A DNA stretch of 64,000 nt from an uncultured Solirubrobacteraceae bacterium (lineage in GTDB: Bacteria; Actinomycetota; Thermoleophilia; Solirubrobacterales; Solirubrobacteraceae), in NCBI GenBank assembly GCA_964588985.1, contig CAZPQW010000002.1, positions 96,001 through 160,000 on the forward strand, given 5' to 3'. The translations under genes and the position numbers were made by a program. Within the stretch, counting starts at the first letter, position 1. Every line of letters starts with the position of its first letter. Under the pieces are notes generated by a model. The model ran no database searches and was not told where the DNA came from. It saw only the letters and a program-made list of their open reading frames with translations. Below, in pieces: positions 5,013 through 19,022 of the stretch.

Positions 5013-5498
5013 ATGAGTCCGGACTTCGCGGCGAGCTTCTTCAACTACGAGTCCGTCGAGGTCCACGAGCGTTCCGAGGATCTCGCGCTGCTCGCCGGCC
5101 GCCCGCAGTCCGACTGGGCGAAGGTCCTCGCCCACACCGAGACGCGCCGCTTCTCGCGTGATGAGACGATCATCTCGGCCGGTGAGAAAGACCGCGCGCT
5201 GTATCTGCTCACCGAGGGCACGCTCGGCGTGCGCCTGGACGCGGACACGGACAGGACGTTCAAGGCGATCGACGCCCCGTCGGTGGTGGGCGAGGTTGCG
5301 TTCCTGGACGGCGGTCCGCGCTCGGCGACGCTGTTCGCGATCACCGACGGCGAGCTGCTGCGCCTGCGCATGGAGAGCTTCGAAACGCTCGCGGCCCGCG
5401 AGCCGGAGCTGGGCCGCGCGATCCTGTTCGACCTCGCGCGCATCGTCACCGCCCGTCTGCGCCTGGCGAGCGACGTCATCGCCCGGACGGGGGGATGA
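5013..5498 (+). CDS. Stand-alone cyclic nucleotide-binding domain protein
   Basis: Phosphate-binding cassette VVGEVAFLDGGPRSAT; no C-terminal HTH. Confidence 0.9.
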   Translation: MSPDFAASFFNYESVEVHERSEDLALLAGRPQSDWAKVLAHTETRRFSRDETIISAGEKDRALYLLTEGTLGVRLDADTDRTFKAIDAPSVVGEVAFLDGGPRSATLFAITDGELLRLRMESFETLAAREPELGRAILFDLARIVTARLRLASDVIARTGG

Positions 5499-8149
5499 AC
5501 ATGGCGAGCACCACGACGTCTGCCAACCCATTCCCGAACTACACCCAGCTTCCTCGGCGCCTGCCGATCTGGGCGTGGCACGTCGGTCGTGTGCTGAGCG
5601 TGTGCTCGGCGATCGGGCTGTGCATCCTGCTCCTCGTCAAGCCGAACAAAGGGCTGGAACTGTGGTGGAGGCTCGCGATCCCGTCGCTGCCGCTGCTGTG
5701 GCTCACCGCCCCCGGGCTGTGGCGCAACCTCTGTCCGCTGGCCGCGTCCAACCAAACCCCTCGTCTCTTCAAGCTCACCCGCGGGCTGACGATCCCCGAC
5801 TGGTATCGCGAGTACGCGCCGGTGGTGGGGATGACCGCGTTCATCGTCTTGGTGGCGTCGCGCGAGCCGCTGCTGAACACGAGCGGCGTCGCGACGGCGG
5901 TATTGATCGGCTCCTCGCTCGTGGGCGCGCTGACGGGCGGCGTGGTGTTCAAGGGCAAGAGCGGCTGGTGCAGCTCGCTGTGCCCGCTGCTGCCGGTGCA
6001 GCGCATCTACGGGCAGACGCCCTTCGCGACGGTCCCCAACTCGCACTGCCAGCCGTGCGTGGGGTGCACGAAGAACTGCTACGACTTCAACCCGCGCGTG
6101 GCGTACCTCGCGGACCTCTACGAGGACGACCGCCACTACACGGGCTATCGCAAGTTCTTCGTCGGCTGCTTCCCCGGCCTGATCCTGTGCTATTTCACGC
6201 TGCCCGAGCACATCTCGGCGGCCTCCGACTACGGGCGCTTCGCGCTCTACATCGCCGCGAGCGCGGGCAGCTTCTTCCTCGCCGAGGCGCTCCTGAAGGT
6301 GACGGTCAACAAGATCACAGCCGTGTACGGAGCGGTGGCGATCAGCCTGTTCTACTGGTACTCCTCGAAGGTGCTCGCCGGCACCCTTACCGGCAGCGAG
6401 AGCACGGCATGGTTCGTATGGGGGTTGCGCGGCGTTGTGTGGGTGCTGGCGGCGGTGTGGCTGGTGCGCACGTGGCGCAAGGAGGCCGTGTTCGTCGAGC
6501 AGGCGACCGCGCCGCCGCCTGTGCGCCTCGGAGACGAGGCGCTCGATGCCGCTCGCGCGCAGCAGGCGGGCAATCCCGAGATCACGTTCGAGCCGAGCGG
6601 CCTGCGCCTGGTGGCGAAGCCCGGGGCGACCCTGCTCGATCTCGCGGAGAGCGGCGAGCAGCCCGTCGAGGCGGGCTGCCGGATGGGCGTGTGCGGTGCT
6701 GACCCGGTGTGCGTGGTCTCGGGAATGGAGAACCTGTCGCCGGTCTCCGGCGATGAGCAGGCGACGCTCGAGCGCCTCGGCTATGCCGAGAGCACACGCA
6801 TGGCCTGCTGTGCGCGGGTCAATGGACCGGTCACGATCTCGCTGACGCCAGAGCGGGCGGGTGCGGTGGCGCCGAAGCGTGTCGAGGGCTTCGAGTACGA
6901 CCCTGAGGTGACGCGCGTGGTGGTCGTGGGCAACGGCATCGCTGGCGTGACCGCCGCCGACCACGTCCGCCGCCGCCACCCGGACTGTCAGATCGACGTT
7001 GTCGCCAACGAGCCGTATCCGCTGTACAACCGGATGGGGATCGGTCGCCTCGTGTACGGCAGCTCGGCGATGATCGGGCTGCAGCTGCTGCCCGACTCGT
7101 GGTACGAGGACAACAAGGTCACGTGTTGGCTGAACACCTTCGCCACCAGCCTGGACCGCGAGCGCCGGGAGCTGACGCTCGGCACGGGTGAGAAGCTCCC
7201 CTACGACCGCCTGATCCTCGCGACCGGCAGCGACTCGTTCGTGCCACCGATCGAGGGCTACGGCGCGCCGGGCACGTTCGTGCTGCGCCGCGCCGCCGAC
7301 GCGTTCGGCATTCGCACGTTCGCGCAGGAGCACGGCGCCGAGCACGCGGTCATCGCCGGCGGCGGGCTGCTCGGCCTCGAGGCGGCGTACGCGCTGCACA
7401 AGATCGGGCTGCACGTGACCGTGCTCGAGCGCGGTAAGACGCTGCTCTCGCGCCAGCTCGACGAGCGCGCGGCGGAGATGCTGCGCGACTACCTCGAGGG
7501 CCTGGGGCTGCACATCATGCTGGCGAGTGAGACCGCGTCGCTGCACGCTGGCGAGAGCAACGGCCGTCCGGGTCGCCTGCGCGAGGTCCGCCTGCGCGAC
7601 GGGCGCAGCCTGCCCGCCGACCTGTTCCTCGTGGCCGCGGGCATCGTGCCGCTGGTGGAGCTCGCGCGCGAGTCGGGCCTGGAGGTTGCCAGGGGCGTGG
7701 TCGTGGACGATGCTCTGGCGACGAGCGATCCCCGCGTGTTCGCGGTCGGCGACGTGGCCGAGCACCGCGGGCGAACGTACGGCCTGTGGCCCGCGGCGGT
7801 CGAGCAGGGGGAGATCGCCGCCGAGAACGCGTTGGGTGGCACGCGCGCCTACGAGGGAACGGTGCCCGTCACGATGCTGAAGGTCGTCGGCGTCGACCTG
7901 CTCTCGATCGGACGCTTCCAGCCGCAGGATGGCGACACCGTGATCGCGATCGAGGACTCCGAGGAGCACAGCTATCGCAAGCTTGTGATCGCCGACGATC
8001 GGATCGTGGGCGCGATCCTGATCGCCCGCCAACAGGACGCCCCCCATGTCACCGACGCGGTCAAGGATGCTCGCGACGTGTCCGCCCTCGTGCCAGATCT
8101 GGAACGAGGCGCGTGGGACGTGCTGGCACAGGAGCCGGTCCCCGCGTAG
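5495..8149 (+). CDS. Membrane Fe-S (CxxxCP-type) + 2Fe-2S ferredoxin + NirB-like FAD/NAD(P)H oxidoreductase fusion
   Basis: Multiple TM helices with WRNLCP, WCSSLCP and CQPCVGCTKNC; ferredoxin-like CRMGVCGAD...RMACC; GNGIAG, GGGLLGLE and FAVGDVAE flavoprotein motifs. Confidence 0.85.
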   Translation: MNMASTTTSANPFPNYTQLPRRLPIWAWHVGRVLSVCSAIGLCILLLVKPNKGLELWWRLAIPSLPLLWLTAPGLWRNLCPLAASNQTPRLFKLTRGLTIPDWYREYAPVVGMTAFIVLVASREPLLNTSGVATAVLIGSSLVGALTGGVVFKGKSGWCSSLCPLLPVQRIYGQTPFATVPNSHCQPCVGCTKNCYDFNPRVAYLADLYEDDRHYTGYRKFFVGCFPGLILCYFTLPEHISAASDYGRFALYIAASAGSFFLAEALLKVTVNKITAVYGAVAISLFYWYSSKVLAGTLTGSESTAWFVWGLRGVVWVLAAVWLVRTWRKEAVFVEQATAPPPVRLGDEALDAARAQQAGNPEITFEPSGLRLVAKPGATLLDLAESGEQPVEAGCRMGVCGADPVCVVSGMENLSPVSGDEQATLERLGYAESTRMACCARVNGPVTISLTPERAGAVAPKRVEGFEYDPEVTRVVVVGNGIAGVTAADHVRRRHPDCQIDVVANEPYPLYNRMGIGRLVYGSSAMIGLQLLPDSWYEDNKVTCWLNTFATSLDRERRELTLGTGEKLPYDRLILATGSDSFVPPIEGYGAPGTFVLRRAADAFGIRTFAQEHGAEHAVIAGGGLLGLEAAYALHKIGLHVTVLERGKTLLSRQLDERAAEMLRDYLEGLGLHIMLASETASLHAGESNGRPGRLREVRLRDGRSLPADLFLVAAGIVPLVELARESGLEVARGVVVDDALATSDPRVFAVGDVAEHRGRTYGLWPAAVEQGEIAAENALGGTRAYEGTVPVTMLKVVGVDLLSIGRFQPQDGDTVIAIEDSEEHSYRKLVIADDRIVGAILIARQQDAPHVTDAVKDARDVSALVPDLERGAWDVLAQEPVPA

Positions 8150-8219
8150 GGCTCGTCTTCGGCCCGCTGCCCGGCTGGCTCTGAGCGCCCCCGATGGGGT
8201 AGGATCCAGACGTTCATAA

Positions 8220-8390
8220 CGGTCGGTGGCCAAGGGAAGCCGGTGAGAATCCGGCGCGGACCCGCCACTGTGACCGGGGATGCCCACCGTTGCACGTCAG
8301 CTTGGCGTGCGGCCACTGACTCCGCCCTTCGGCGGAGACGGGAAGGCTCGGAGGGGTAGGCCCGGCAGCCAGGAGACCTGCCTCCGACCG
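8220..8390 (+). ncRNA. Cobalamin riboswitch
   Basis: GGGAAGCCGGTGAGAATCCGGCGCGG-CCCGCCACTGTGA, GCCACTG, GGGAAGG, B12 box AGCCAGGAGACCTGCC; P1 CGGTCGG/CCGACCG; -10 TAGGAT at 8200. Confidence 0.95.
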
Positions 8391-8426
8391 CAAGCCCACA
8401 AGCCCTCGTGGAAAGGGGTCGGCTCC

Positions 8427-9608
8427 ATGCTCACATCTCGTCGTATCCGTCGGACGCTCCTCGTCGCATCCATCTCGCTGTTCCTGCTCGCCTTCGGTGT
8501 CCCATCCGCGCTCGCCGCACCGACGGTCACCGTTCGCATCGAGGGCGAATCCTCGACACTCGTGCCGAAGACATCCGTCACGCTGAGCGCGCCCGAGCCT
8601 GTCAGCGGCTGCCCCGCGAACAGCGTCGCGGCCGCGATCAACCTTGCGGTGGGCGGCAACTGGGATCACGGCGAGGCCAACGGCGGCGCCGGCGACTTCA
8701 CCGAAACGATCCTCGGCGAGACGCACTCGTTCACGCACGAAGCCGACACCTGGGCCGAGTGGGTCAACTACAAATGGGGCGGCGGCATCTGCACGGACCT
8801 CCTCAGCGAAGGCGACGAAGTGGTGATGGTCGCCGACCACGAGCCGGAACCGCTCTACGTGCCGACCGTCCTGCCGCTCGTCGTCGCCGAAGCGCCGGCC
8901 AGCGTCCAGGCGGGCACGCCGTTCACCGTCAAGGTCAGCGCCGTCCACATCCCAGCCGGGATGTTCGCCGAAAAAGGCGAGGGCGAAGCGCAGCCGATCG
9001 AAGGCGCCACAGTGTCCGGCGCTGGTGCGACCGCGACCAGCTTCGCCGGCGGGGCCGCGACCCTCACACTCGACACCGTCGGCAACGTCACCCTGCGCGC
9101 GACGAGGGCTGGAGACGCTCCCTCGGCGGGCTTCGTCGTGTGCGTGCACAACGGCAACGACGGCAACTGCGGTACGACGAGCGCTTCAACCACCGGATCG
9201 ACCGCGGCCGGTGGCGTCCTGCCGTTCACCGCCTACAAAGGCCCGTTCGCGCTCGTCGCCCACGCCAGCGACCTGATCGACGGCCACGTCTACCCGCGCC
9301 GGCTCGCCCCACGCGTGCTCGCCGGAACGATCGCCGCCCACACCGCCGTCACGTCGGTGAGCACGGAGCTCCGTCGCCGCTATCGCGGCCGCTGCTCCGC
9401 ATACGACGGCGACCGGGAGCGCTTCGTCTCGGCGCGCTGCGGCAGCGGCAGCTTCTTCAAGGTCTCGAACGGAGGAGCGTTCTCCTACCTGCTGCCATCC
9501 GCGCTCGCGCCAGGCCGTTATGTCCTCGACATCGAGGCGAGCGATGCGGCCGGCAACGTCACCACGCTCGCGCGCGGGACCTCGAGGCTCGTGTTCTATG
9601 TCCGGTAG
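8427..9608 (+). CDS. Secreted protein with DUF4430-like (transcobalamin beta-like) segment and Ig-like domains
   Basis: ATG 8427 with AAAGGGG RBS; signal peptide ..SALAA; FTETILGE...WAEWVN...LSEGDEVV; first gene after the riboswitch. Confidence 0.7.
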   Translation: MLTSRRIRRTLLVASISLFLLAFGVPSALAAPTVTVRIEGESSTLVPKTSVTLSAPEPVSGCPANSVAAAINLAVGGNWDHGEANGGAGDFTETILGETHSFTHEADTWAEWVNYKWGGGICTDLLSEGDEVVMVADHEPEPLYVPTVLPLVVAEAPASVQAGTPFTVKVSAVHIPAGMFAEKGEGEAQPIEGATVSGAGATATSFAGGAATLTLDTVGNVTLRATRAGDAPSAGFVVCVHNGNDGNCGTTSASTTGSTAAGGVLPFTAYKGPFALVAHASDLIDGHVYPRRLAPRVLAGTIAAHTAVTSVSTELRRRYRGRCSAYDGDRERFVSARCGSGSFFKVSNGGAFSYLLPSALAPGRYVLDIEASDAAGNVTTLARGTSRLVFYVR

Positions 9609-10125
9609 GACGGCGCTTGTCTCGGCGCTGGCGACGGTCGCGGCGTGGGGCGCCGCGACCGCGTCGGCCGACACGCCACGCGCCGCTCGGACGGCGGCCT
9701 CGGGTCCAAGCGTGCAGGACACGATCGTGGGCGTCGGCGGCAGGGTCCTCTCGCGGACGCGCACCGTCACCGCGTCCGCGAGCTCGGTGCGCATAGGTCA
9801 CAGGAGCTGCGCCGTGGCCGCCGGCACGCCGCTCGCGGTGCTGCTCGCCGTCCGCCGCGCCGGCGGTCCCGGCTTCGCGCTGCGCGACTACGGCAGTTGT
9901 GGATCCTCGCCGGCGAACTCGGGCCAGCTGTTCGTGTACTCACTCGGCGGGGAGACCAACCGTGGCCAGAACGGCTGGGAGTACGAGGTCGACGGGGTCG
10001 TCGGCAGCGCGGGCGCCGCTGACCCCAGCGGCCCGGAGGGCAACGGCCGGCGTCTGCGCGCGGGCGACCGCGTGGTGTGGTTCTGGTGTGAAGCCTACCG
10101 AGGCGGATGCAGGCGAAAGCCGTGA
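9598..10125 (+). CDS. Secreted DUF4430-like protein
   Basis: ATG 9598 overlaps the upstream stop; signal peptide; LFVYSLGGE...GWEYEVDG...LRAGDRVVWFW. Confidence 0.7.
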   Translation: MSGRTALVSALATVAAWGAATASADTPRAARTAASGPSVQDTIVGVGGRVLSRTRTVTASASSVRIGHRSCAVAAGTPLAVLLAVRRAGGPGFALRDYGSCGSSPANSGQLFVYSLGGETNRGQNGWEYEVDGVVGSAGAADPSGPEGNGRRLRAGDRVVWFWCEAYRGGCRRKP

Positions 10126-11054
10126 TCGGCCGGGCCGCATCCGCGCTTGTCCTGCTCGCCACCGCGACGCTCGCCGGCTGCGGACTCGGCGCCGGGCCGG
10201 CGCCCACCGCCGTGCGGCTCGCGGTGACCCGCGACTTCGGCGCGAGCCCGCTGCCTCACGCGGGCGCCTTGAAGATCAGCGGGCAGGAGACCGCGATGAG
10301 CCTGCTGATCCGCAACTACTCGGTCGCCACCCGCTACGGCGGCGGCTTCGTGCAGAGCGTCGACGGTCTCGGCGGCGGTCAGGAAGTGGGCAGGCCGATC
10401 GACTGGTTCTACTACGTCAACGGGGTCGAGGCGAGCAAGGGCGCCGCCGCCACGAATGTCCACCCTGGCGACCACATCTGGTGGGACCGGCACGACTGGA
10501 GTCAGACCGACCACATCCCGGCGGTCGTCGGATCGTTCCCCGAGCCGTTCCTCAACGGCATCGAAGGCAAGCGCCTGCCCGTGCGGATCGAATGCTCGGT
10601 CGTCTCAGGGATCGCCTGCCGGACCGTCGCCGAGCGAATGCGTGCGCTCGACATCCCCGCGGCGATCGCCGGGGTCGGCATCGGTGGCGCCGCCGCCACG
10701 TTGCGCGTGCTCGTCGGGCCGTGGTCGAAGGTGGCGGGCGACCTCGACGCGCGCTCGATCGGCGACGGGCCGCGCACGAGCGGCGTGTATGCGCGCTTCT
10801 CGTCGGATGGACGCACGCTCACGCTGCTCGACGAGAGCGGCGCCTCGACACGCGCGCTGTCGGCCGGCGCCGGGCTCGTGGCGGCGACCCGCCGCGAAGG
10901 AGACGCGCCCGTGTGGGTGATCACCGGAACCGACGAAGCCGGCGTGAATCTCGCCGCCGGCGCGTTCAACGAGGGCGCGCTGCGCGACCGCTTCGCGGTG
11001 GCGCTCACAGCGGGCGAAACGCTCGCGCTCCCGACACAGGCGCCCAAGTCGTGA
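10107..11054 (+). CDS. DUF4430 domain lipoprotein (putative cobalamin-binding)
   Basis: Lipobox LAGC; GGFVQSVDG...WFYYVNG...GDHIWW signature. Alternative start GTG 10122. Confidence 0.85.
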   Translation: MQAKAVIGRAASALVLLATATLAGCGLGAGPAPTAVRLAVTRDFGASPLPHAGALKISGQETAMSLLIRNYSVATRYGGGFVQSVDGLGGGQEVGRPIDWFYYVNGVEASKGAAATNVHPGDHIWWDRHDWSQTDHIPAVVGSFPEPFLNGIEGKRLPVRIECSVVSGIACRTVAERMRALDIPAAIAGVGIGGAAATLRVLVGPWSKVAGDLDARSIGDGPRTSGVYARFSSDGRTLTLLDESGASTRALSAGAGLVAATRREGDAPVWVITGTDEAGVNLAAGAFNEGALRDRFAVALTAGETLALPTQAPKS

Positions 11055-11956
11055 GCGCGCTCGCGGGGGTCAGCCGCATCGCCTACCGGCGTCGCGCGAG
11101 CGCGCTGCACGCCACCCGCGCCCCGATCGTCGCCGCGTTCGGCGCCGCGCTCGCGAGCTCCGCGCTGATCGTCGAAAACCCGGTGCTGCTCGGGGCGCTG
11201 CTCATGGCCGTGCTCGTCGCCGCGTTCGCCGCTCGCATCGGTCGCCAGATCCTCGCCGCGGTCCGCGTGACCGCGCTGCCGGTGGTGGCGCTGATCGTGC
11301 TCGTCAACGTGCTCGACAACCGCGGCGGGCTGACGGTGTTCGCGCGCCTGGGGGACTGGGGCGTGCTCGGGCAGGTGAACCTGACCGTCGAGGCGGTCGT
11401 CTACGGGCTCGTGATCGCGCTGCGGCTGCTCGTCGTGATGCTCGCGTGCCTGCTCGTCGTGTGCGCCGCGGACCCGGACGAGCTGCTGCTCGCCTGCCGG
11501 CGCATCTCGCCACGCTCGGCGCTCACCGCGACGCTCGCCACGAGGCTCATACCCGTGCTCGGCAGGGACGCGATCCGGCTGGCGGAGGCGCAGCGCTGCC
11601 GTCCGGACGGCGGGGCGCGGGGGGTGCGCGGCAAGCTGGAGATCCTGCGCGCGACCGTCGGCGGAGCGCTCGACCGCTCGCTCGACGTGGCCGCGGTGCT
11701 CGAGATGCGCGGCTACGGCGCGCGCAGACGAATCCCAGCGGCCCGACGAGCCCTGTCGCGACACGACCGCGCGTTCGCGGTCTCCGCGGTCGCGGTGCTA
11801 GGCCTGTCGCTGCTCGCGCGGCTCGACGGGACCGGGGCCTTCCGGGAGTTCCCGCTCGTCCACTTCTCCGTCGATCCCTGGACGTTCGTGCTCGCCGGCC
11901 TGACGTTCGCGGTCGCGCTCGCCCCGTTCCTCGACAGGCGGGGGATCGAGCCGTGA
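11051..11956 (+). CDS. ECF transporter transmembrane T component
   Basis: Hydrophobic; coupling-helix pattern LAEAQRCR and ALDRSLDVAAVLEMRGYG; GTG start overlaps the upstream stop. Confidence 0.88.
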   Translation: MSALAGVSRIAYRRRASALHATRAPIVAAFGAALASSALIVENPVLLGALLMAVLVAAFAARIGRQILAAVRVTALPVVALIVLVNVLDNRGGLTVFARLGDWGVLGQVNLTVEAVVYGLVIALRLLVVMLACLLVVCAADPDELLLACRRISPRSALTATLATRLIPVLGRDAIRLAEAQRCRPDGGARGVRGKLEILRATVGGALDRSLDVAAVLEMRGYGARRRIPAARRALSRHDRAFAVSAVAVLGLSLLARLDGTGAFREFPLVHFSVDPWTFVLAGLTFAVALAPFLDRRGIEP

Positions 11957-13638
11957 GCGTCCTCGCCTTCGAGAACGTCAGCTACAGGTACCCGACAGCC
12001 GGCAGCGACGCGCTGCGAGACGTGAGCCTGTCGCTCGCGGCGGGCGAGTTCTGCGTCGTCGTCGGCCTCTCCGGCTCGGGCAAGTCGACGCTGCTGCGTG
12101 CCGCGGCCGGTCTCGTGCCGCACTTCCACGGCGGCAGCTTCGCCGGCACAGTCACCGTCGGAGGTCTCGACACGCGCGAGCACACCCCCGCCGAGATCGG
12201 CGCGGTGGTTGGCACTCTGTTGCAGGATCCCGAGACCCAGATCGTGATGAACACCGTGCGCGCGGAGCTGGCGCTCGCGCTCGAGAACCTCGGCGGCAGC
12301 TCCGCGAGCGTCGCCAGGGGGGTGGAGGAGACCTCGCTCGCGCTCGGCATCGGCCACCTGCTCGACCGGGCGACGGGCGAGCTGTCCGGCGGCGAGCTGC
12401 AGCGGGTGGCGCTCGCCGCGGCGCTCGTCGCGCGCCCGTCGCTCGTCCTGCTCGACGAGCCCACATCGCAGCTGGACCCCGTCGCCGGCGACGAGCTGAT
12501 CTGGCAGCTGCGCAGGCTCAACCAGGAGGCCGACACCGCGGTCCTGCTGATCGAGCATCGCCTCGAGCGCTGCCTAGCAGCCGCAGACCGTGTGGTCGCG
12601 ATGGCCGACGGCGCGATCGTGTGCGACAGCGACCCGCGTGGCTTCCTCGAATGGGCCGCCGAGAGCGCGCCGACGCTCCAGACGCCAGGCGCGCGGATGC
12701 TCGACCTCGCCGGCCTGCGCCCGCCGCCAAGCGGGGTCAAGCAGGCGCGCGCGACCCTGCGCGCCAACGGCCTGCTCGGCGACGAGGACGACGCGCCGAC
12801 CTCGCCGCCCGCATCGAGCGTCGCGGCCGGTCCTCGCAAGCGTCTGTTCCAGCGCGCCGGCCGGCTGCTCGGCAAACGCGACGGCGGTGAGACCCCTGCG
12901 CTGTCGCTGCGCGGCGTGTGGCACGAGATCCGCGACGGCCCCGCGATCCTGCGCGGCCTCGACCTGCGGCTGCGCCCCGGCGAGCCGGTGGTGCTGATGG
13001 GGCGCAACGGCGCGGGCAAGTCCACGCTGCTGCGCCACGCCGCCGGGCTGCTCGCGCCGACCCGCGGGAGCGTCGAGCGCAGCGGCCGCGTGGCGCTGCT
13101 GCTGCAGAACCCCGGCGACTACTTCCTGCACGAGCGCGTGGACGCCGAGACGACGCCGGCCGCGCTCGAGCTCGCCGGCCTGACCGAGCTGGGCGCGCGC
13201 CACCCGCGCGACCTCTCCGGCGGGCAGCGACAGCGCCTCGCGCTCGCGATCGTGCTCGGGGGCGAGGAGCCCGCCACTGTGCTCGCGCTCGACGAGCCCA
13301 CGAGGGGCATGGACAGGATGGCCAAGCACGTGCTCGCGGGCTGGCTCTCCGAGCGCGCGGCCGCGGGGCTCGCGGTGATCGTCGCCACCCACGACGCGGA
13401 GTTCGCCGCGGAGTTCGCCACCCGTGCGGTGCTGCTCGCGGACGGGCGCGTGATCGCAGACGGCCCGATCGAGGAGATCCTCTCCGGCGGCTGGTACTTC
13501 ACCACCGAAGCCGCCCGCATCCTCGACGGGGCGGACGGCGTGCTCGGGCCGGAGCAGGGAGCCGCGCTGCTGCGCGCGCGCCTCGCCGGGGATTCGCAGC
13601 CGGCCCGCGAGCACGCGGCCGAGGAGGTTCGCTCGTGA
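11953..13638 (+). CDS. ECF transporter ATPase with two ABC domains
   Basis: [19 protein letters not shown] and GRNGAGKS/LSGGQ/LDEPT. Confidence 0.92.
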   Translation: MSVLAFENVSYRYPTAGSDALRDVSLSLAAGEFCVVVGLSGSGKSTLLRAAAGLVPHFHGGSFAGTVTVGGLDTREHTPAEIGAVVGTLLQDPETQIVMNTVRAELALALENLGGSSASVARGVEETSLALGIGHLLDRATGELSGGELQRVALAAALVARPSLVLLDEPTSQLDPVAGDELIWQLRRLNQEADTAVLLIEHRLERCLAAADRVVAMADGAIVCDSDPRGFLEWAAESAPTLQTPGARMLDLAGLRPPPSGVKQARATLRANGLLGDEDDAPTSPPASSVAAGPRKRLFQRAGRLLGKRDGGETPALSLRGVWHEIRDGPAILRGLDLRLRPGEPVVLMGRNGAGKSTLLRHAAGLLAPTRGSVERSGRVALLLQNPGDYFLHERVDAETTPAALELAGLTELGARHPRDLSGGQRQRLALAIVLGGEEPATVLALDEPTRGMDRMAKHVLAGWLSERAAAGLAVIVATHDAEFAAEFATRAVLLADGRVIADGPIEEILSGGWYFTTEAARILDGADGVLGPEQGAALLRARLAGDSQPAREHAAEEVRS

Positions 13639-15368
13639 GCTGGCAGCTCGCGTCCTTCGCTCTCGTGCTGCTCTCGCTCGCGGTCGCCTTCTGGTGGTAT
13701 GAGCGCGCGCAGCCCACGCCCAAGCTGCTCGCCCTGCTCGCGACGCTCGCGGCGATCGCCGCGCTCGGGCGCGACGCGTTCGCCGCGATCCCGGACGTCA
13801 AGCCGATCACCGCGATCGTGCTCATAAGCGGCGTCGCGTTCGGCTCAGGCCCCGGCTTCGCCGTTGGCGCGATCTCGGCGCTCGCGTCGAACATCCTGCT
13901 CGGGCAGGGGCCGTGGACGCCGTGGCAGATGCTCGGCTGGGGGCTCGTCGGGCTGCTCGGCGCGGCGCTCGGGCGCGTCGGCTCGCGGCGGCTCGGGCCG
14001 CTGGCGCTCGCGCTCGCGTGCGCCGTCTCGGCCGAGGTGTTCAACCTCGTGGTCGACCTCTACACGTGGACGGGCGCCGGCGATCACACGCTCAGGGCGT
14101 TCGGCCTCGTGCTCGGCACGGCCGTCGTGTTCGACGTCACCCACGTCGTGGCGAGCTTCGCCTTCGGTCTCGCCTTCGGGCCGACGCTGCTGCGCATGCT
14201 CCTGCGCGTGCGCTCGCGGCTGGAGGTCAGCTGGCACGCGCCGTCGCAGGCGCCGAAGCGACTGGCAGGCGGCGGCGGGGCGGGTGCGCTGCCCGCGGGT
14301 ACTCCGCTGCTCGCGCTGCTGCTCGCGGTCCCCGCGCTCGCTGTCGCCACACCGGCCAAAGCCGATGCCCGGGTCGCCGCGGCGAGCGCCGCGCGCGTTG
14401 GCATCGCGCGCGAGGTCGCGTTCCTGGCGAGCGCCCAGAACTCCGACGGCGGCTTCGGCGGCGCCGCCGGGCAGTCGAGCAGCGAGCTGTTCTCCTCGTG
14501 GGCGGCGCTCGGCCTCGCCGCCGCGGATCGCAACCCGCTGAGCGTGCGACGGGCAGGCCACACTGTCCTCGACGCGATGCGCGCGCAGGCGGCGAGCGTG
14601 CAGAGCCCGGGGGACATCGAGCGGACGATCCTCGCGCTCCACGCGTGCGGAGCGTCGGCGCGCGCGCTGCCGGGCGGAGATCTCGTGCGCAGGCTGCTGC
14701 GCTTCCGTGCTCACGACGGCTCGTTCGTCGAGCAGGCCAACCTGACGGCGTTCGCGGTGCTCGCGCTGCGGGCCGCTGGATACGCCACGCACGACCCGGT
14801 CGTGCGCCGTGCGGCGAGCTGGCTCACGCGACAGCAGGAAGCAGACGGTGGTTTCGGCTTCGCCAAGCGCGGCGGCGGCAGCGATGTGGACGACACCGCC
14901 GCGGCGCTGCAGGCGCTCGTCGCATCCGGAGCCCGCGGCGGACAGACGGTCGCGCACGCGGTGTCGTTCCTCGTCGGCGCCCAGAACCTCGACGGCGGCT
15001 TTCCGCAGCAGAAGGGCGGCGAATCCAACGCGCAGTCGACCGCGTGGGGCGTCCAGGCGCTCGACGCGGCCTCGCGCGACGTGGAAGCGGTCACGCGGCG
15101 GGGCAGCCGCTCGCCGCTCGGCTACCTGGAGAGCCTGATCGCGGCGAACGGCAGCGTGCGCTACTCGCGCACCGGCTCCCAGACGCCGGTGTGGGTCACC
15201 GCGCAGGCGCTGACGGCGCTCGGGGGCAAGCCCTTCCCGATCGCGCCGGTAAGCCGCGCGCATCGCTCGGCGGTCGTGTCCGCGGCATCGAGGGGTGCCC
15301 TCGGCGTCGGCCTCGCTCGGGCCTTCGCGACGCTCGGCGCAGCGATCGGCGCGCTGCTCGAGCCGTAG
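13635..15368 (+). CDS. CbrT-like ECF S component fused to a prenyltransferase/squalene-cyclase-type alpha/alpha barrel
   Basis: PDVKPITAI...GFAVGA...SNILLGQGPWTPWQM (CbrT-like), then repeats AQNSDGGFG, QEADGGFG...SDVDDTAAALQAL, AQNLDGGF...SNAQSTAW. Confidence 0.85.
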   Translation: MSWQLASFALVLLSLAVAFWWYERAQPTPKLLALLATLAAIAALGRDAFAAIPDVKPITAIVLISGVAFGSGPGFAVGAISALASNILLGQGPWTPWQMLGWGLVGLLGAALGRVGSRRLGPLALALACAVSAEVFNLVVDLYTWTGAGDHTLRAFGLVLGTAVVFDVTHVVASFAFGLAFGPTLLRMLLRVRSRLEVSWHAPSQAPKRLAGGGGAGALPAGTPLLALLLAVPALAVATPAKADARVAAASAARVGIAREVAFLASAQNSDGGFGGAAGQSSSELFSSWAALGLAAADRNPLSVRRAGHTVLDAMRAQAASVQSPGDIERTILALHACGASARALPGGDLVRRLLRFRAHDGSFVEQANLTAFAVLALRAAGYATHDPVVRRAASWLTRQQEADGGFGFAKRGGGSDVDDTAAALQALVASGARGGQTVAHAVSFLVGAQNLDGGFPQQKGGESNAQSTAWGVQALDAASRDVEAVTRRGSRSPLGYLESLIAANGSVRYSRTGSQTPVWVTAQALTALGGKPFPIAPVSRAHRSAVVSAASRGALGVGLARAFATLGAAIGALLEP

Positions 15369-15428
15369 GGGGTGGGCGGAAGCACGCGCCTTCAGCAGAC
15401 GTTAAGCAGCCGTCGTACCCTTGTGAAC

Positions 15429-16121
15429 ATGTCCGGACACGCCTACAGCGCTCAGGCGGCGCCCTCGCGGCGTCGTCTCCTGCCTCCGCAGTGGTCGGGA
15501 GGCCCCGCGGGCGCGGTCGCGGTGGCCGCGCTCTGCCTGGTCGCGATGGTGGTCGTGTGGGCGGCTGCCGAGCTCGTGCCGAGCGCCCATTTCAGAGACG
15601 CGGTCGTGCTGCACGACTTCATCATGCTCGGCACTCCCCGCGTAGATCAGGTGGGCAACTTCCTCCTGCACCTGCTCGAACCGGAACTGTTCGTCTTCTG
15701 GGGGCTCGCGCTCGTCGCGTTCGCGTTCGCGCGCTCGCGGCCGCGTACGGCGATCGCGGTGGTGGGCGTGCTGGCGCTCGCACCGTTCACGTCAGAGACA
15801 CTCAAGCCGCTGCTCGCGCACCCGCACGTGGTGCTCTACAACGTTGGGATCGGCCCGGACTCCTGGCCCAGCGGGCACGCCACCGCCGCGCTCGCGCTGG
15901 CGCTCAGCGCGGTGCTCGTCGCGCCTGCCCGCCTGCGCCCGCTCGTGGCCGTGCTCGGCGCGATGTTCGCGATCGTCGCCGGCTGCTATCTACTGATCCT
16001 CGCGTGGCACATGCCGAGCGACGTGCTCGGAGGCTTTCTCGTGGCGGCGTTGTGGATGGCGCTGGCGGTCGCGGCGCTGCGCGAGGCCGAGCGCCGCTGG
16101 CCGACCGGCCGCTCTATCTAA
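15429..16121 (+). CDS. PAP2 family phosphatase
   Basis: LKPLLAHP, SWPSGHAT, WHMPSDVLGG motifs. Confidence 0.88.
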   Translation: MSGHAYSAQAAPSRRRLLPPQWSGGPAGAVAVAALCLVAMVVVWAAAELVPSAHFRDAVVLHDFIMLGTPRVDQVGNFLLHLLEPELFVFWGLALVAFAFARSRPRTAIAVVGVLALAPFTSETLKPLLAHPHVVLYNVGIGPDSWPSGHATAALALALSAVLVAPARLRPLVAVLGAMFAIVAGCYLLILAWHMPSDVLGGFLVAALWMALAVAALREAERRWPTGRSI

Positions 16122-16533
16122 GCATGACGCTGCGCAGCGCGGAGCGGATGAGCTCGGCGAGCTGGCTGGGCGTCGTGCCGGCGCTGAGGCTGAGTATCCA
16201 GTCGGCAAGCTCGCGGTCGGAGGCCTCGATCCGGAAGCCGTTGATCTCGACGAAGGCGAGCATCGCCACCAGGGCGGTGCGCTTGTTGCGGTCGACGAAC
16301 GGTTGGCCCTCTGCGATTCCGTGTGCGAGGACGGCTGCCTGGAGCGCCAGGTCGGCCACCTCGTAGTGGGCGTAGGCGCCGGGACGGCCGAGCACGCTCT
16401 GCAGCCCGTCGAGATTGCGCAGCTGATCTTTCGCGAGCGTTGCTGTACCGCCGATGATCAGTCCATGCAGTTCCAGGATGTCCTCGAGCGTCAGGTAGAC
16501 CGGCTCGAGCTCGTGAGGCTGACCTTCCGTCAC
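16114..16533 (-). CDS. Doc/Fic family toxin (variant active-site motif)
   Basis: YLTLEDILELH...AAVLAHGIAEGQPFVDRNKRTA...FVEING. Confidence 0.85.
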   Translation of the reverse strand: MTEGQPHELEPVYLTLEDILELHGLIIGGTATLAKDQLRNLDGLQSVLGRPGAYAHYEVADLALQAAVLAHGIAEGQPFVDRNKRTALVAMLAFVEINGFRIEASDRELADWILSLSAGTTPSQLAELIRSALRSVMLR

Positions 16534-16538
16534 ACCAG

Positions 16539-16790
16539 CTAGGGACGAGCGGCGTCGAGGTCTTCACGGTCAGCGAGGATCTGCAGCGCTTCGCTGTGCT
16601 CAGACACGACTCGCTGGCCGATATCGCGTATCCGCTCGCGGACTGTCTCGGTGGACATGATCCGCAGCTCGCCACCGGGCATCTCCTCGACGAGCACCGA
16701 CGACCCCGGCGCATAGCCCCGCGTCTCGAGCTCACGAGGAATCGAGATCACGTTGCTGTTGCCGACGCGGCGCACCTTCACGACCTTCAT
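16539..16790 (-). CDS. AbrB/MazE-type antitoxin
   Basis: MKVVKVRRVGNSNVISIPREL swapped-hairpin signature, directly upstream of Doc. Confidence 0.85.
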   Translation of the reverse strand: MKVVKVRRVGNSNVISIPRELETRGYAPGSSVLVEEMPGGELRIMSTETVRERIRDIGQRVVSEHSEALQILADREDLDAARP

Positions 16791-16796
16791 GAGATC

Positions 16797-16817
16797 AGTA
16801 TATACACGGATATCCGT
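16797..16817 (-). promoter_or_regulatory. Leaderless -10 (TATACT) and perfect palindrome ACGGATATCCGT, likely TA operator
   Basis: TATACT 6 nt upstream of the antitoxin ATG; 12-bp palindrome at 16806-16817. Confidence 0.65.
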
Positions 16818-16863
16818 CAATGGGGGTGGTGTTGGATGTCCGCTTGCAGCGTGCCGTGACGCT

Positions 16864-16895
16864 CTCGACCCCGCAACCTTCGGGTTATGAGCCCA
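16864..16895 (-). pseudogene. tRNA-fMet fragment (anticodon arm to degenerate T arm)
   Basis: Minus strand reads GGGCTCATAACCC-GAAGGTTGCGGGGTCGAG, matching the initiator tRNA anticodon stem-loop; no acceptor or D arm. Confidence 0.65.
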
Positions 16896-17283
16896 GTTCG
16901 GAGGTGTCGCGGGGTGTCGCCGAGTCCGCCGATCTGGCTCTAGCAATGACGATCTGGCTTCCGCCCAACCCTTCGGTAGAGCCGGATGGCGTGGGACATA
17001 TTTGCACTTTGTTCGCACCCTGCCCTCATCACGACCGTCTCTCGGTCATGCGCGTTTGGGCATGTTGTCGCTCGAGCCAGCTCCTGTGCGCGGAACCCCC
17101 TCGCCAGGTCTCCTGAGCTCGCACGCTTCGGCGAGTGCTTCAAACAGATCGGCGGCAAGGGGAAGAAATGTGCGATCGACGTATTCACGCGGCGTCGGAC
17201 CGTCCGCCAGCGAGTAGATAACTCCCCGGTCCGCCACCTGCTGAATCGCGACCATCACCTCACTCACGCGCCGGCAGCGTTCG

Positions 17284-17547
17284 CTAGTTCTCGGGGCGTT
17301 CGACCGGCGTGTTGGCCGTTAGCCGGAGTTCGCGACGGCGGCTAAGCCATTTGACGGTGTTGAAGATGCCGAGAAGGAGAACAAAGAATGCAGCGTTACC
17401 AGTGGTCGTTTCGAAACTGTGGCCGGTAGCCGTGCCGACCACAACCACGATGAAGATGACCGCCACGTATTCGAGCCATCGTGGCTGCCGTTTGACAAAG
17501 CCGTCGAAGCGGTGCAGCCGTTCGAGAAAGTCGTCCACGCGCCGCAT
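17284..17547 (-). CDS. Small hypothetical membrane protein (2 TM)
   Basis: Two hydrophobic segments in 87 aa; lower-GC region. Confidence 0.5.
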   Translation of the reverse strand: MRRVDDFLERLHRFDGFVKRQPRWLEYVAVIFIVVVVGTATGHSFETTTGNAAFFVLLLGIFNTVKWLSRRRELRLTANTPVERPEN

Positions 17548-17755
17548 CTCAGCTATGAGTCTAACCGCGTAAGTCGTGGTTTTGGAGAGGCATGTTCCTT
17601 CCTTCGGAACTTGCCAGGGGCGGGTCTTCCTCCATGTCAGGCGGGGAACGGAGATCGCGGCCGAGACCCACCAAGGCCACGAGACTATTTCTCTGTGATT
17701 GCTGCATACACTGCATCATATGTGTTGTCAGCGTCTCCTGTGGTAGCCTGTCTTC

Positions 17756-18184
17756 ATGTCCGCCATAGCCGCACACCCACGCGCCGAGCGAGTTCGCTCG
17801 CTCCCCACCCTCTCGCAGGCCGCGAGATTCATCGGCCTAGATACAGGCGGGATGAGCCGCGCCGTCCGGGCTCTCGGCGTCGAGCCGCAGCGATGGGGCC
17901 GCCGCGACAAGCACCTGGAAGTCGCTCAGGTGCTCCAGATCGCCAGGGTCGCGCAGCGCGCGTCGCTGGAGGAGGTCGCCGGCAGCATCCTGGAATGGAC
18001 TGAACAGAACCACCCGGACGCACTGGAGCAGACGACCGCCGAGATCGATGCGTTCTTCGCCGCACTTCCTCCACCGACGGCGACGCCAGCCGATGAGTTC
18101 GTTGCCGAGCTACGGGCAGCGCTACCGCCGCGATGGGCGGACAAGGCCGAGAAGATCTGGCGCGCTCACGCTGGCAGCGTGTAG
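17756..18184 (+). CDS. Hypothetical protein with N-terminal HTH-like segment
   Basis: TLSQAARFIGLDTGGMSRAV; TG-n-TAGCCT -10 six nt before the ATG. Confidence 0.6.
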   Translation: MSAIAAHPRAERVRSLPTLSQAARFIGLDTGGMSRAVRALGVEPQRWGRRDKHLEVAQVLQIARVAQRASLEEVAGSILEWTEQNHPDALEQTTAEIDAFFAALPPPTATPADEFVAELRAALPPRWADKAEKIWRAHAGSV

Positions 18185-18357
18185 TAGTCGCCGCGATACC
18201 CCTCTCGCTGGCGACCGCGTTTGAAGCCGGAGCCGGCCAGCTCGGTTGCGCTCAGCGCGACGCCGCTGTCCACGACGAGACCGACGCGGCCCGCCTGCAC
18301 GGTCCTGCGCCGGGCTGAAAGGCGCGGGCCGGGCGCCGCACCCCGACCCCTGGCGGG

Positions 18358-18957
18358 CTACGACCCCTCGTGTGCCCCCGGCGCCCACAGCGGCTCGCCG
18401 TGCGCGCCCTGCTCGGCCTGCGCGTTGGCGGCGCGGCTGAGGATGAAGAACAGGTCGGAGAGCCGGTTGAGGTAGCGCACGACCTCCGGGTTGACCTCCT
18501 CGCCGACGGCGATGGTGCGTCGCTCCGCGCGCCGGCAGACGGTGCGGCAGACGTGCAGGTGCGCGCCCGCGGGGCTGCCCCCGGGGATCACGAACGAGCG
18601 CAGCGGCTCGAGGCCCGCGTTGACCTCGTCGCATGCCTGCTCGAGCCACGCGGTGTACTCACCGCTCACGCGCAGGCGCTCGCGCGCGCCCTCCTCGCCC
18701 GCCGCGGGCGGCGAGTCGGGAACGGAAAGGTCGGCTCCGAGGTCGAGCAGATCGTTCTGCACGCGCCGCAGCCAGCCGGCGAACTTCTCCGACAATCCGG
18801 GTGCCAGCAGCGCAATGCCGATCGTGGCGTTGAGCTCGTCGACGGTGCCGTAGGCCTCGACGCGCGGGTGCAACTTGGAGACACGGCTCATGTCCCCGAG
18901 ATGGGTCTCCCCGCCGTCCCCGAGCTTTGTATAGATGCGAGTCAAGTTGACGGTCAT
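18358..18957 (-). CDS. pduO: PduO-type ATP:cob(I)alamin adenosyltransferase
   Basis: RIYTKLGDGGET, YGTVDELN, RTVCRRAER, YLNRLSDLFF. Confidence 0.95.
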   Translation of the reverse strand: MTVNLTRIYTKLGDGGETHLGDMSRVSKLHPRVEAYGTVDELNATIGIALLAPGLSEKFAGWLRRVQNDLLDLGADLSVPDSPPAAGEEGARERLRVSGEYTAWLEQACDEVNAGLEPLRSFVIPGGSPAGAHLHVCRTVCRRAERRTIAVGEEVNPEVVRYLNRLSDLFFILSRAANAQAEQGAHGEPLWAPGAHEGS

Positions 18958-19022
18958 CTTCCGTCGAGTCTCGCACACCGAGCCAACGCTCATCCGTTGG
19001 ATCGGATACGTTCTCGCACCTC

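Follow-up and report, generated by a model that had tools for sequence, protein, structure and literature searches.

A cobalamin riboswitch-led operon for an ECF transporter with candidate transcobalamin-like accessory proteins in an uncultured Solirubrobacteraceae bacterium

Introduction

What would exported proteins do for a transporter of a class, the energy-coupling factor (ECF) transporters, that is taught to import without need of a binding protein outside the cell? The question is raised by a locus on contig CAZPQW010000002.1 (assembly GCA_964588985.1) of an uncultured Solirubrobacteraceae bacterium, where six genes (g1–g6) lie behind a cobalamin riboswitch within the 64,000-nucleotide stretch analyzed here (positions 96,001–160,000 of the contig; "the window", whose own numbering is used below unless a related locus is named). 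The first three genes encode exported proteins with DUF4430-like domains and the last three an ECF transporter, the S component of which continues into an alpha/alpha toroid. We conclude that the operon very probably encodes a dedicated (group I) ECF importer of cobalamin or other corrinoids, with a CbrT-family S component, which the riboswitch would turn off when B12 is plentiful. Together with a more tentative role for transcobalamin-like accessory proteins, which would capture the corrinoid and hand it off, this is a reasonably probable explanation of the locus as a whole.

The riboswitch and the operon

The cobalamin riboswitch aptamer occupies nt 8210–8399 of the forward strand (RF00174, 78.8 bits against a gathering score of 31.5, E 9.4e-18), with the match spanning the full model (1–189 of 189). 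It is the sole Rfam match in the window and, in a whole-genome search that returned one match, the sole cobalamin riboswitch in the 3.41 Mb genome. Gene calls, made from a third-position GC frame plot and the list of open reading frames (ORFs; the window is 69.6% G+C), place g1 to g6 directly behind the aptamer on the same strand, with the start of g1 27 nt beyond its 3′ end. All five junctions between the genes overlap (by 11, 19, 4, 4, and 4 nt), consistent with a single operon whose genes are coupled in translation. A riboswitch followed by six overlapping genes had been proposed by a model from the bare letters and an ORF list (hereafter the sequence-only reading), and the Rfam match, frame plot, and ORFs bear out both the coordinates and the gene count.

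The ECF transporter

The T component, EcfT, is encoded by g4 (11051–11956, 301 amino acids), a protein with several hydrophobic helices that matches PF02361 (CbiQ/EcfT) at 42.9 bits (cut-off 25) and TIGR02454 at 44.6 bits, the latter under its equivalog cut-off. The following gene, g5 (11953–13638, 561 amino acids), encodes a fused double ATPase (EcfA-A′) with a PF00005 (ABC_tran) match of 153.8 bits in two stretches; its best NCBIfam matches, ECF_ATPase_1 and ECF_ATPase_2, are under their equivalog cut-offs. The last gene, g6 (13635–15368), encodes the S component joined to a seventh membrane helix and the toroid.

The S component covers residues 1–192 of g6 (13635–14210) and is homologous to the solved CbrT chain (6fnp_A, PDB 6FNP). 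As a single sequence the g6 N-terminus matches this chain at E 2.9e-6, and it aligns with residues 12–167 of the chain at E 6e-7, while a profile of 38 sequences reaches E 1.7e-17 and lays g6 residues 30–200 on residues 10–178 of 182. Two sequence blocks, IP.V.P.T and SNI.LG.G.WT, are common to both proteins. Pfam scores for the g6 N-terminus fall just under the cut-offs (ECF_trnsprt 27 bits, cut-off 30.7; DUF6580 25.6 bits), and across the g6 family ECF-ribofla_trS matches 38 of 38 members and ECF_trnsprt 37. By homology, the domain is a CbrT-family S component. The transporter is thus as the sequence-only reading had described it (EcfT, a dual ATPase, and a CbrT-like S component fused to an alpha/alpha barrel), with matches to CbiQ, ABC_tran (twice), 6fnp_A, and Prenyltrans.

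ECF-CbrT of Lactobacillus delbrueckii is reported as an experimentally shown ECF importer of cobalamin and cobinamide, for which hemin was no competitor, and CbrT is placed within an nrdJ-cbrS-cbrT-pduO cluster (PMC5997447). The two systems share a homologous S component, an EcfT with two ATPase domains, a B12 context, and a PduO gene nearby. In the window, this PduO-type cob(I)alamin adenosyltransferase gene (18358–18993; PF01923, Cob_adeno_trans, 202.2 bits) is on the opposite (minus) strand, outside the operon and 2990 nt beyond g6, in keeping with the salvage gene that had been noted 3 kb downstream. They differ in that L. delbrueckii CbrT is a free S component of 182 amino acids, which presumably uses a shared ECF module, whereas the S component of the window carries a seventh helix and a toroid of ~300 amino acids and is encoded together with a dedicated module with fused ATPases and three DUF4430 proteins, under riboswitch control. 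Dedicated ECF systems in which S, T, and A are joined by further small or extracytoplasmic components are described in the Cbi/NikMNQO group (PMC2667541). These transport metals with a CbiM/NikM S component and have neither DUF4430 proteins nor a toroid.

The host as a B12 user

The genome (48 contigs, 95.9% complete) contains five B12-binding domains over cut-off, carried by MetH, a methylmalonyl-CoA mutase, an ornithine-aminomutase-like subunit, an HD-domain protein, and one other. Searches of it for CbiC, CobD/CbiB, and CobS returned nothing, an absence that at 95.9% completeness is no proof. This gene content suggests an organism that can neither make nor remodel cobamides and would depend on the import of finished ones. 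Given that the riboswitch ahead of g1 is the only one in the genome, that CbiC, CbiB, and CobS were not detected, and that B12 enzymes are present, the operon is most likely the genome's corrinoid importer. Elsewhere in this genome (contig C5, 132542–134245; L076), a protein of 568 amino acids joins HD_5/HD to B12-binding_2 and B12-binding domains and could, by its domain content, be a cobalamin-dependent signalling protein.

The same evidence bears on whether the transported substrate might instead be cobalt, imported by a CbiMNQO-like transporter under B12 control. In organisms that make B12, cobalt uptake is often under the control of B12 riboswitches; moreover, CbiQ, the family that g4 matches, is labelled "cobalt transport protein", and the ATPase models hit by g5 include cbiO-type ones. 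However, the locus has no CbiM/CbiN-type S component, its S domain being CbrT-like, and a genome in which no corrin synthesis markers were found would have no need of cobalt to build B12. We rejected the cobalt reading on these two grounds, and its probability is very close to nil.

The exported DUF4430 proteins

Among the three exported proteins, the domain is clearest in g3 (10107–11054), a lipoprotein of 315 amino acids with the lipobox LAGC, whose Cys25 is invariant in 20 orthologues. DUF4430 (PF14478) covers residues 61–127 (10287–10487) and scores 51 bits where the cut-off is 23.8 (54.2 bits when the whole genome was searched), with Trp100, Gly112, and other positions, like Cys25, invariant in the alignment. 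It is followed by a conserved C-terminal domain of ~180 amino acids with no Pfam, NCBIfam, or PDB sequence match.

The secreted protein g2 (9598–10125, 175 amino acids) has a weaker signal peptide, as read from its sequence, and its DUF4430 domain (residues 108–161; 9919–10080) scores 19.5 bits, under the same cut-off. Compared by hhalign, g2 residues 109–164 match the DUF4430 core of g3 with 89.9% probability (E 1.7e-6), and five of seven g2 orthologues carry DUF4430 at E ≤ 0.01. These orthologues (247–258 amino acids) also carry a CarboxypepD_reg-like C-terminal domain of ~75 amino acids, which has been lost from the window copy, the reading frame of which stops where g3 starts.

The first gene, g1 (8427–9608), encodes a secreted protein of 393 amino acids, with a signal peptide ending in ALA, a divergent DUF4430-like domain, and immunoglobulin (Ig)-like/CarboxypepD_reg-like domains. 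Pfam gave no DUF4430 match for g1, only a weak one to Big_13; by hhalign, residues 81–144 (8667–8858) match the g3 DUF4430 core with 95.5% probability (E 1.5e-8). DUF4430 (E ≤ 0.01) occurs in 8 of 13 g1 orthologues, a count that may stem in part from the g2 half of the three orthologues that are g1-g2 fusions, and CarboxypepD_reg occurs in 9. One family of the order has g1 and g2 joined in one ORF of 593–610 amino acids (L040:2399–4177, L041:2668–4497, and L042:7668–9476). The hhalign match of g1 against g2 reflects the three g1-g2 fusions only and has no bearing on domain homology.

Across a joint alignment of 40 DUF4430 domains from g1, g2, and g3, one Trp and one Gly are invariant, while pairwise BLASTP among the three proteins gives E 0.018 at best. 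NCBIfam has no name for any of them, and the ESM Atlas returned own-family clusters only, that nearest to g1 having DUF4430 on 12% of its members. The claim of three exported proteins with DUF4430-like motifs is therefore sound, for g1 and g2 by way of profile methods; the PF14478 model itself, also expected in all three, is over its cut-off in g3, under it in g2, and without a match in g1.

The interest of this family is that its Pfam entry is reported to cover, in addition, the C-terminal (beta) domain of transcobalamins (PMC4350170). In the window, the alpha-type and beta-type domains are on separate genes and not on one chain, and a search for longer proteins from the g3 DUF4430 region gave seven proteins, none with a toroid domain (weak evidence). 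In three database proteins (P0121, P0122, and P0124), DUF4430 shares a chain with CbiQ/EcfT, and one of them includes an ABC ATPase as well. These fused g3-EcfT ORFs could be real fusions or frameshift or gene-calling artefacts of metagenome assemblies, and we did not count them as evidence of contact.

The toroid fused to the S component

Beyond the S domain, g6 passes through an Arg/Lys-rich loop (RMLLRVRSRLEVSWHAPSQAPKR) between its sixth and seventh helices and then the seventh membrane helix itself (residues 219–237, 14289–14345; hydropathy 2.01), and continues into an alpha/alpha toroid with Q..DGGF repeats (residues ~250–540, 14382–15254). The C-terminal stretch (15300–15368) consists of a weakly hydrophobic tail (residues 556–574, 15300–15356; hydropathy 1.62), possibly a second membrane anchor by its hydropathy, followed by the last three codons and the stop. 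In Pfam, the toroid matches Prenyltrans (45.8 bits) and SQHop_cyclase_C (39.7 bits), both over their cut-offs, as do 38 of 38 family members. Its nearest solved relatives by PDB profile are squalene-hopene and related cyclases (7xq4, E 2.5e-32; 1gsz, E 1.3e-31), and the NCBIfam model SCO2321_fam matches at 99.5 bits, under its cut-off of 300.

The positive-inside rule, together with split homologues that have signal sequences, argues that the toroid should lie outside the membrane. Among split toroid proteins from other classes of the phylum, 6 of 14 N-termini have a hydrophobic signal-like stretch, and at the one such locus read to the end (L062), the separate toroid protein ends in a clear membrane helix. 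The corresponding protein of Latilactobacillus curvatus, discussed below, has an LPXTG wall anchor. To judge from these predicted signals, the toroid is always surface-tethered: by fusion to the S component here, by a signal sequence elsewhere in Actinomycetota, and by LPXTG in L. curvatus.

These cyclase matches raise the possibility that the toroid is a terpenoid cyclase or prenyltransferase-type enzyme, or else an extracellular corrinoid modifier. Residues 416–422 of g6 also read SDVDDTA, which we take to recall the DXDDTA motif of class II cyclases, and at least 85% of 33 homologues retain its Asp419. However, the aspartates flanking Asp419 vary among these homologues (SNPDMT, PDSNDT, SESDST, and SFVDET), such that the first and third aspartates of DXDD are not conserved, and g6 has a single toroid of ~300 amino acids in place of a two-domain cyclase body. 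The motif also occupies the same place within its internal repeat as the equivalent residues do in the other repeats, and may be structural. As a single domain with a predicted location outside the cell, the toroid is unlikely to act as an enzyme; the cyclase reading was rejected on the variable motif and the single outside toroid, and we regard an enzyme of either kind as highly improbable.

Conservation in relatives and across the phylum

Of 41 genomes from the same genus and order, 40 contain a g6 homologue, and 20 of these related loci were retrieved for comparison. Each of the 20 is preceded by an RF00174 match on the operon strand and keeps the order g3, T, AA′, S domain; the toroid is absent at one (L052). 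By tblastn, g1 is present at 14 and g2 at 9. At loci without a g1 or g2 match, the first gene past the riboswitch still encodes a secreted protein, with a sub-threshold DUF4430 match (17–23 bits) in six of seven. With only g3 conserved throughout, the earlier suggestion of three alternative scavengers with different cobamide selectivity is speculation.

Some of the related loci carry further riboswitches. Two (L044:8365–8749 and L045:9412–9834) have two back-to-back cobalamin riboswitches on opposite strands, the one on the + strand of L045 leading to a g1-like gene (9858–11222) that is transcribed away from the transporter operon. At L052, a cyclic di-AMP riboswitch (1497–1661, 55.5 bits) is located 1.3 kb upstream of the cobalamin riboswitch.

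More widely, g6 finds a match at E ≤ 1e-10 in 62 of the 301 genomes sampled from the phylum, and the 20 loci retrieved from this sample comprise 14 with both S and toroid and six with S only. The toroid is encoded by a separate gene right after S in 13 of the 14 and is fused in one (L066). Ahead of S, g3-T-AA′ is found in 12 of the 14, the other two ending at contig ends, and RF00174 is found in 10, with three of the misses at contig ends and a fourth locus that may start too late. Of the six S-only loci, five lack both a riboswitch and a g3-like gene, and the sixth has the two. Every toroid-bearing locus with intact upstream sequence carries g3 (19 of 19 loci from the order, 12 of 12 from the phylum sample).

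At three split loci that we examined, the first gene past the riboswitch encodes a secreted beta-propeller protein of ~850 amino acids, not a DUF4430 protein (L053:759–3359, L056:718–3306, and L062:948–3491). It combines a PQQ_2/BamB-type propeller with repeated ASRT/DUF5719 domains and may, given its predicted secretion and position, be a B12-capture protein.

Lactobacillaceae counterparts and the question of heme

The lsa1836-1840 genes of L. sakei are described as encoding S, AA′, and T components along with transcobalamin-beta-like and transcobalamin-alpha-like proteins, the latter two exported, and the authors model an alpha-like/beta-like heterodimer and propose heme uptake (10.1101/864751). 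A split transcobalamin on an ECF transporter is thus already in print for L. sakei and is not original to the window. Among the works on transcobalamin and ECF transporters that our literature search returned, this preprint is the only one to treat bacterial homologues, and among those on DUF4430, none on bacterial B12 uptake was found. The search likewise gave nothing relevant on transcobalamin-like proteins linked to a riboswitch, on a prenyltransferase with a cobalamin ECF S component, on cobalamin riboswitches and squalene, or on SCO2321-SCO2325. New here are the fusion of S component and toroid (usual in this order and otherwise met with once, in a genome of another family), the presence of more than one DUF4430 protein, and a link to a cobalamin riboswitch that recurs consistently.

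A tblastn search of plasmid records with the g6 S domain led to a replicon of L. curvatus (L078) encoding, in order, an LPXTG toroid protein, a DUF4430 protein, EcfT, a double ATPase, and an S component, with a Dyp-type peroxidase gene nearby. Given this gene order and the nearby Dyp peroxidase gene, which the preprint also names, we infer that L078 is the counterpart of lsa1836-1840. Residues 69–317 of the LPXTG protein align with the g6 toroid by hhalign (96.3%, E 1.6e-9, 237 columns), and the DUF4430 protein scores 62 bits. The five functions encoded together (toroid, DUF4430 protein, T, double A, and S) are those of the window. In L. curvatus, however, the toroid is a separate, wall-anchored protein encoded first in the operon, whereas in the window it is fused to the C-terminus of S; L. 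curvatus has one DUF4430 protein where the window has three; and a search of the L. curvatus locus gave no cobalamin riboswitch, with heme the substrate proposed for lsa1836-1840. A second counterpart is on the L. plantarum plasmid pMF1298-5, where T-AA′-S is followed by a 350-residue protein, weakly toroid-like (42.7%, E 2.5e-4), and then a DUF4430 protein (59.5 bits). This transporter has been named CbrV/U/T and placed among cobalamin salvage genes (PMC6722938), and in L. rhamnosus a DUF4430 gene is reported to adjoin rtpR, the gene of a B12-dependent reductase (PMC9963975). DUF4430 genes are thus met with in B12 settings among Lactobacillaceae too, which speaks for a role of the family in corrinoid handling.

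Import of heme, or of another non-corrin tetrapyrrole, therefore has to be weighed for the window as well. It can draw on the heme-related phenotypes and docking reported in the L. sakei preprint (10.1101/864751) and on the Dyp-type peroxidase gene near the L. curvatus homologue. It is opposed by the cobalamin riboswitch ahead of the operon here and in 30 further loci, by an S domain homologous to CbrT, with which hemin did not compete, and by a genome that uses B12 and has no detected cobamide synthesis genes. We consider a heme importer very improbable at this locus. The riboswitch link argues, moreover, that the whole family handles corrinoids, and so bears on the heme assignment of its only studied member.

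A candidate two-chain corrinoid carrier

The animal B12 carriers (transcobalamin, intrinsic factor, and haptocorrin) consist of an alpha-helical toroid and a small beta domain, both of which are also found in the window. In the window, these halves are on separate chains, the assembly would be membrane-tethered and not soluble, and the toroid is outside Cobalamin_bind by hidden Markov model (HMM); the window proteins would also serve a membrane transporter, whereas the animal carriers serve receptor-mediated endocytosis. Human transcobalamin's alpha and beta domains, when made separately, are reported to assemble only with cobalamin; the beta domain alone binds cobalamin and cobinamide, and separate expression of the two domains lowers the affinity for cobalamin (PMC5599065). 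As the human halves join only with cobalamin, and splitting them lowers affinity, a two-chain clamp could close near the transporter and still release its ligand.

On this basis, the following course of events can be pictured. The secreted, lineage-variable DUF4430/Ig proteins g1 and g2 may bind corrinoid further out in the wall; such variable products of the first genes (DUF4430/Ig here, beta-propeller elsewhere) would form an outer capture layer there. The lipoprotein g3 would bind corrinoid through its transcobalamin-beta-like domain, and the loaded domain would dock on the S-tethered toroid, as the separate human halves do with cobalamin. The two-chain clamp would bind more loosely than a one-chain carrier, and the ligand would pass to the CbrT-like S component, which would topple, with EcfT and the double ATPase resetting the cycle. 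The importer would thereby provide a riboswitch-controlled supply for MetH, methylmalonyl-CoA mutase, and the other B12 enzymes, with the nearby PduO making the adenosyl form. The part played by the accessory proteins in this scheme (binding by g3, docking on the toroid, and hand-off) is a tentative proposal, which we take seriously without counting it as the expected outcome.

Several observations weigh against a transcobalamin-like system. No match to the transcobalamin alpha family (PF01122, Cobalamin_bind) was found in any of the 38 g6 family members, even at E ≤ 10, and no transcobalamin, intrinsic factor, or haptocorrin chain is among the 46 PDB profile matches of g6. Of the transcobalamin barrel that the sequence-only reading saw in the toroid, the alpha/alpha toroid thus stands and the kinship with the carriers is not supported; by sequence, the toroid belongs to the prenyltransferase/squalene-cyclase families, and "transcobalamin-like" denotes a resemblance of fold class only. 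Likewise, HMM profiles of the DUF4430 region (from g3 and from the 40 domains of g1, g2, and g3) found no transcobalamin beta chain in the PDB, where all matches were at chance level (E 0.7–1.9), the proposed link between DUF4430 and that chain resting on Pfam membership and HHpred results by others. Two loci, L052 and L072, have the lipoprotein g3 but no toroid, such that the beta-like lipoprotein is not strictly dependent on an adjacent toroid. As L. delbrueckii ECF-CbrT is reported to work in E. coli and in proteoliposomes with no accessory protein (PMC5997447), accessory proteins are not required for transport as such. The only experimental study of a homologous five-gene system, as the L. 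sakei preprint presents it, assigns heme, and no riboswitch was found at either Lactobacillaceae locus (L. curvatus or L. plantarum). Finally, the minimum-energy fold pairs part of the g1 Shine-Dalgarno region, a sequestration of the ribosome-binding site by the riboswitch that is no better than chance (z 0.36 against shuffles), and no terminator-like or sigma-70-like site was found in 8000–16600.

Some of these points would equally suit a corrinoid importer without any transcobalamin-like sandwich, in which the DUF4430 proteins bind corrinoid alone and deliver it straight to S, and the toroid acts as a spacer or as a scaffold spanning the wall, as a receptor of the secreted proteins, or as a binder of another part of the ligand or of a different ligand. 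The place of the toroid outside the transcobalamin alpha family, g3 without a toroid at L052 and L072, the reported ability of the human beta domain to bind cobalamin and cobinamide by itself (PMC5599065), and the ORFs in which g3 is joined to EcfT and not to a toroid all speak for such an arrangement. However, genes for the toroid and for DUF4430 proteins keep company with the S gene in Actinomycetota and Lactobacillaceae alike, the toroid is, by prediction, always tethered to the surface, and g3 accompanies every toroid with intact upstream sequence in both samples. We think an importer of this simpler kind unlikely, though well short of negligible.

The boldest form of the transcobalamin-like explanation would hold that the toroid and DUF4430 lipoprotein are a true two-chain bacterial transcobalamin, which closes only around a corrinoid and releases it into S; that corrinoids are the substrate throughout the five-component family, the Lactobacillus "heme" system included; that the single-chain animal carriers arose by fusion of such a bacterial alpha/beta gene pair; and that these transporters form an ECF class with an obligatory extracytoplasmic binding stage. 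Taken whole, this is doubtful. A clamp, if true, would point to a bacterial origin of the animal B12 carrier proteins and would help explain how soil B12 auxotrophs compete for traces of the vitamin. The family, which is common among Actinomycetota of the soil, equips a B12-specific ECF transporter with two or more surface proteins, and the fusion of S component and toroid is a natural tether, which shows that the toroid works beside the S component.

Surface B12-capture proteins are also known in Bacteroides, where BtuG acts with BtuB. The two systems are alike in having extra surface proteins, encoded in a B12-riboswitch operon, that would capture the vitamin ahead of a transporter. In other classes of the phylum of the window, the likeness extends to the secreted beta-propeller protein encoded first in the operon. 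They differ in their fold families, in the envelope (no outer membrane is expected in the phylum of the window), and in transport that is TonB-dependent and then via BtuCD in Bacteroides as opposed to ECF-type here.

Neighbouring genes

A gene for a PAP2 membrane phosphatase (g7, 15372–16121, + strand; PF01569, 44.2 bits) starts 4 nt past g6 and is possibly co-transcribed with g1–g6. A PAP2 gene is found directly 3′ of the operon in 8 of the 20 related loci, all of the same genus. Between the operon and the PduO gene lies an islet of lower G+C (16114–18200; 0.59–0.66 against 0.70–0.75 around it, with 0.59–0.64 between 16.2 and 17.9 kb). It contains a Fic/Doc-family gene (16114–16533, minus strand) and several further ORFs with no family match. 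One minus-strand ORF (16539–17018), directly upstream of the Fic/Doc gene, looks by eye AbrB/SpoVT-type antitoxin-like from an internal Met on, with no family match to it. On the 5′ side, the neighbour of the riboswitch (5495–8149) encodes a protein of 884 amino acids with 2Fe-2S ferredoxin, pyridine nucleotide-disulphide oxidoreductase, and Rubredoxin_C domains, and ends 60 nt ahead of the aptamer.

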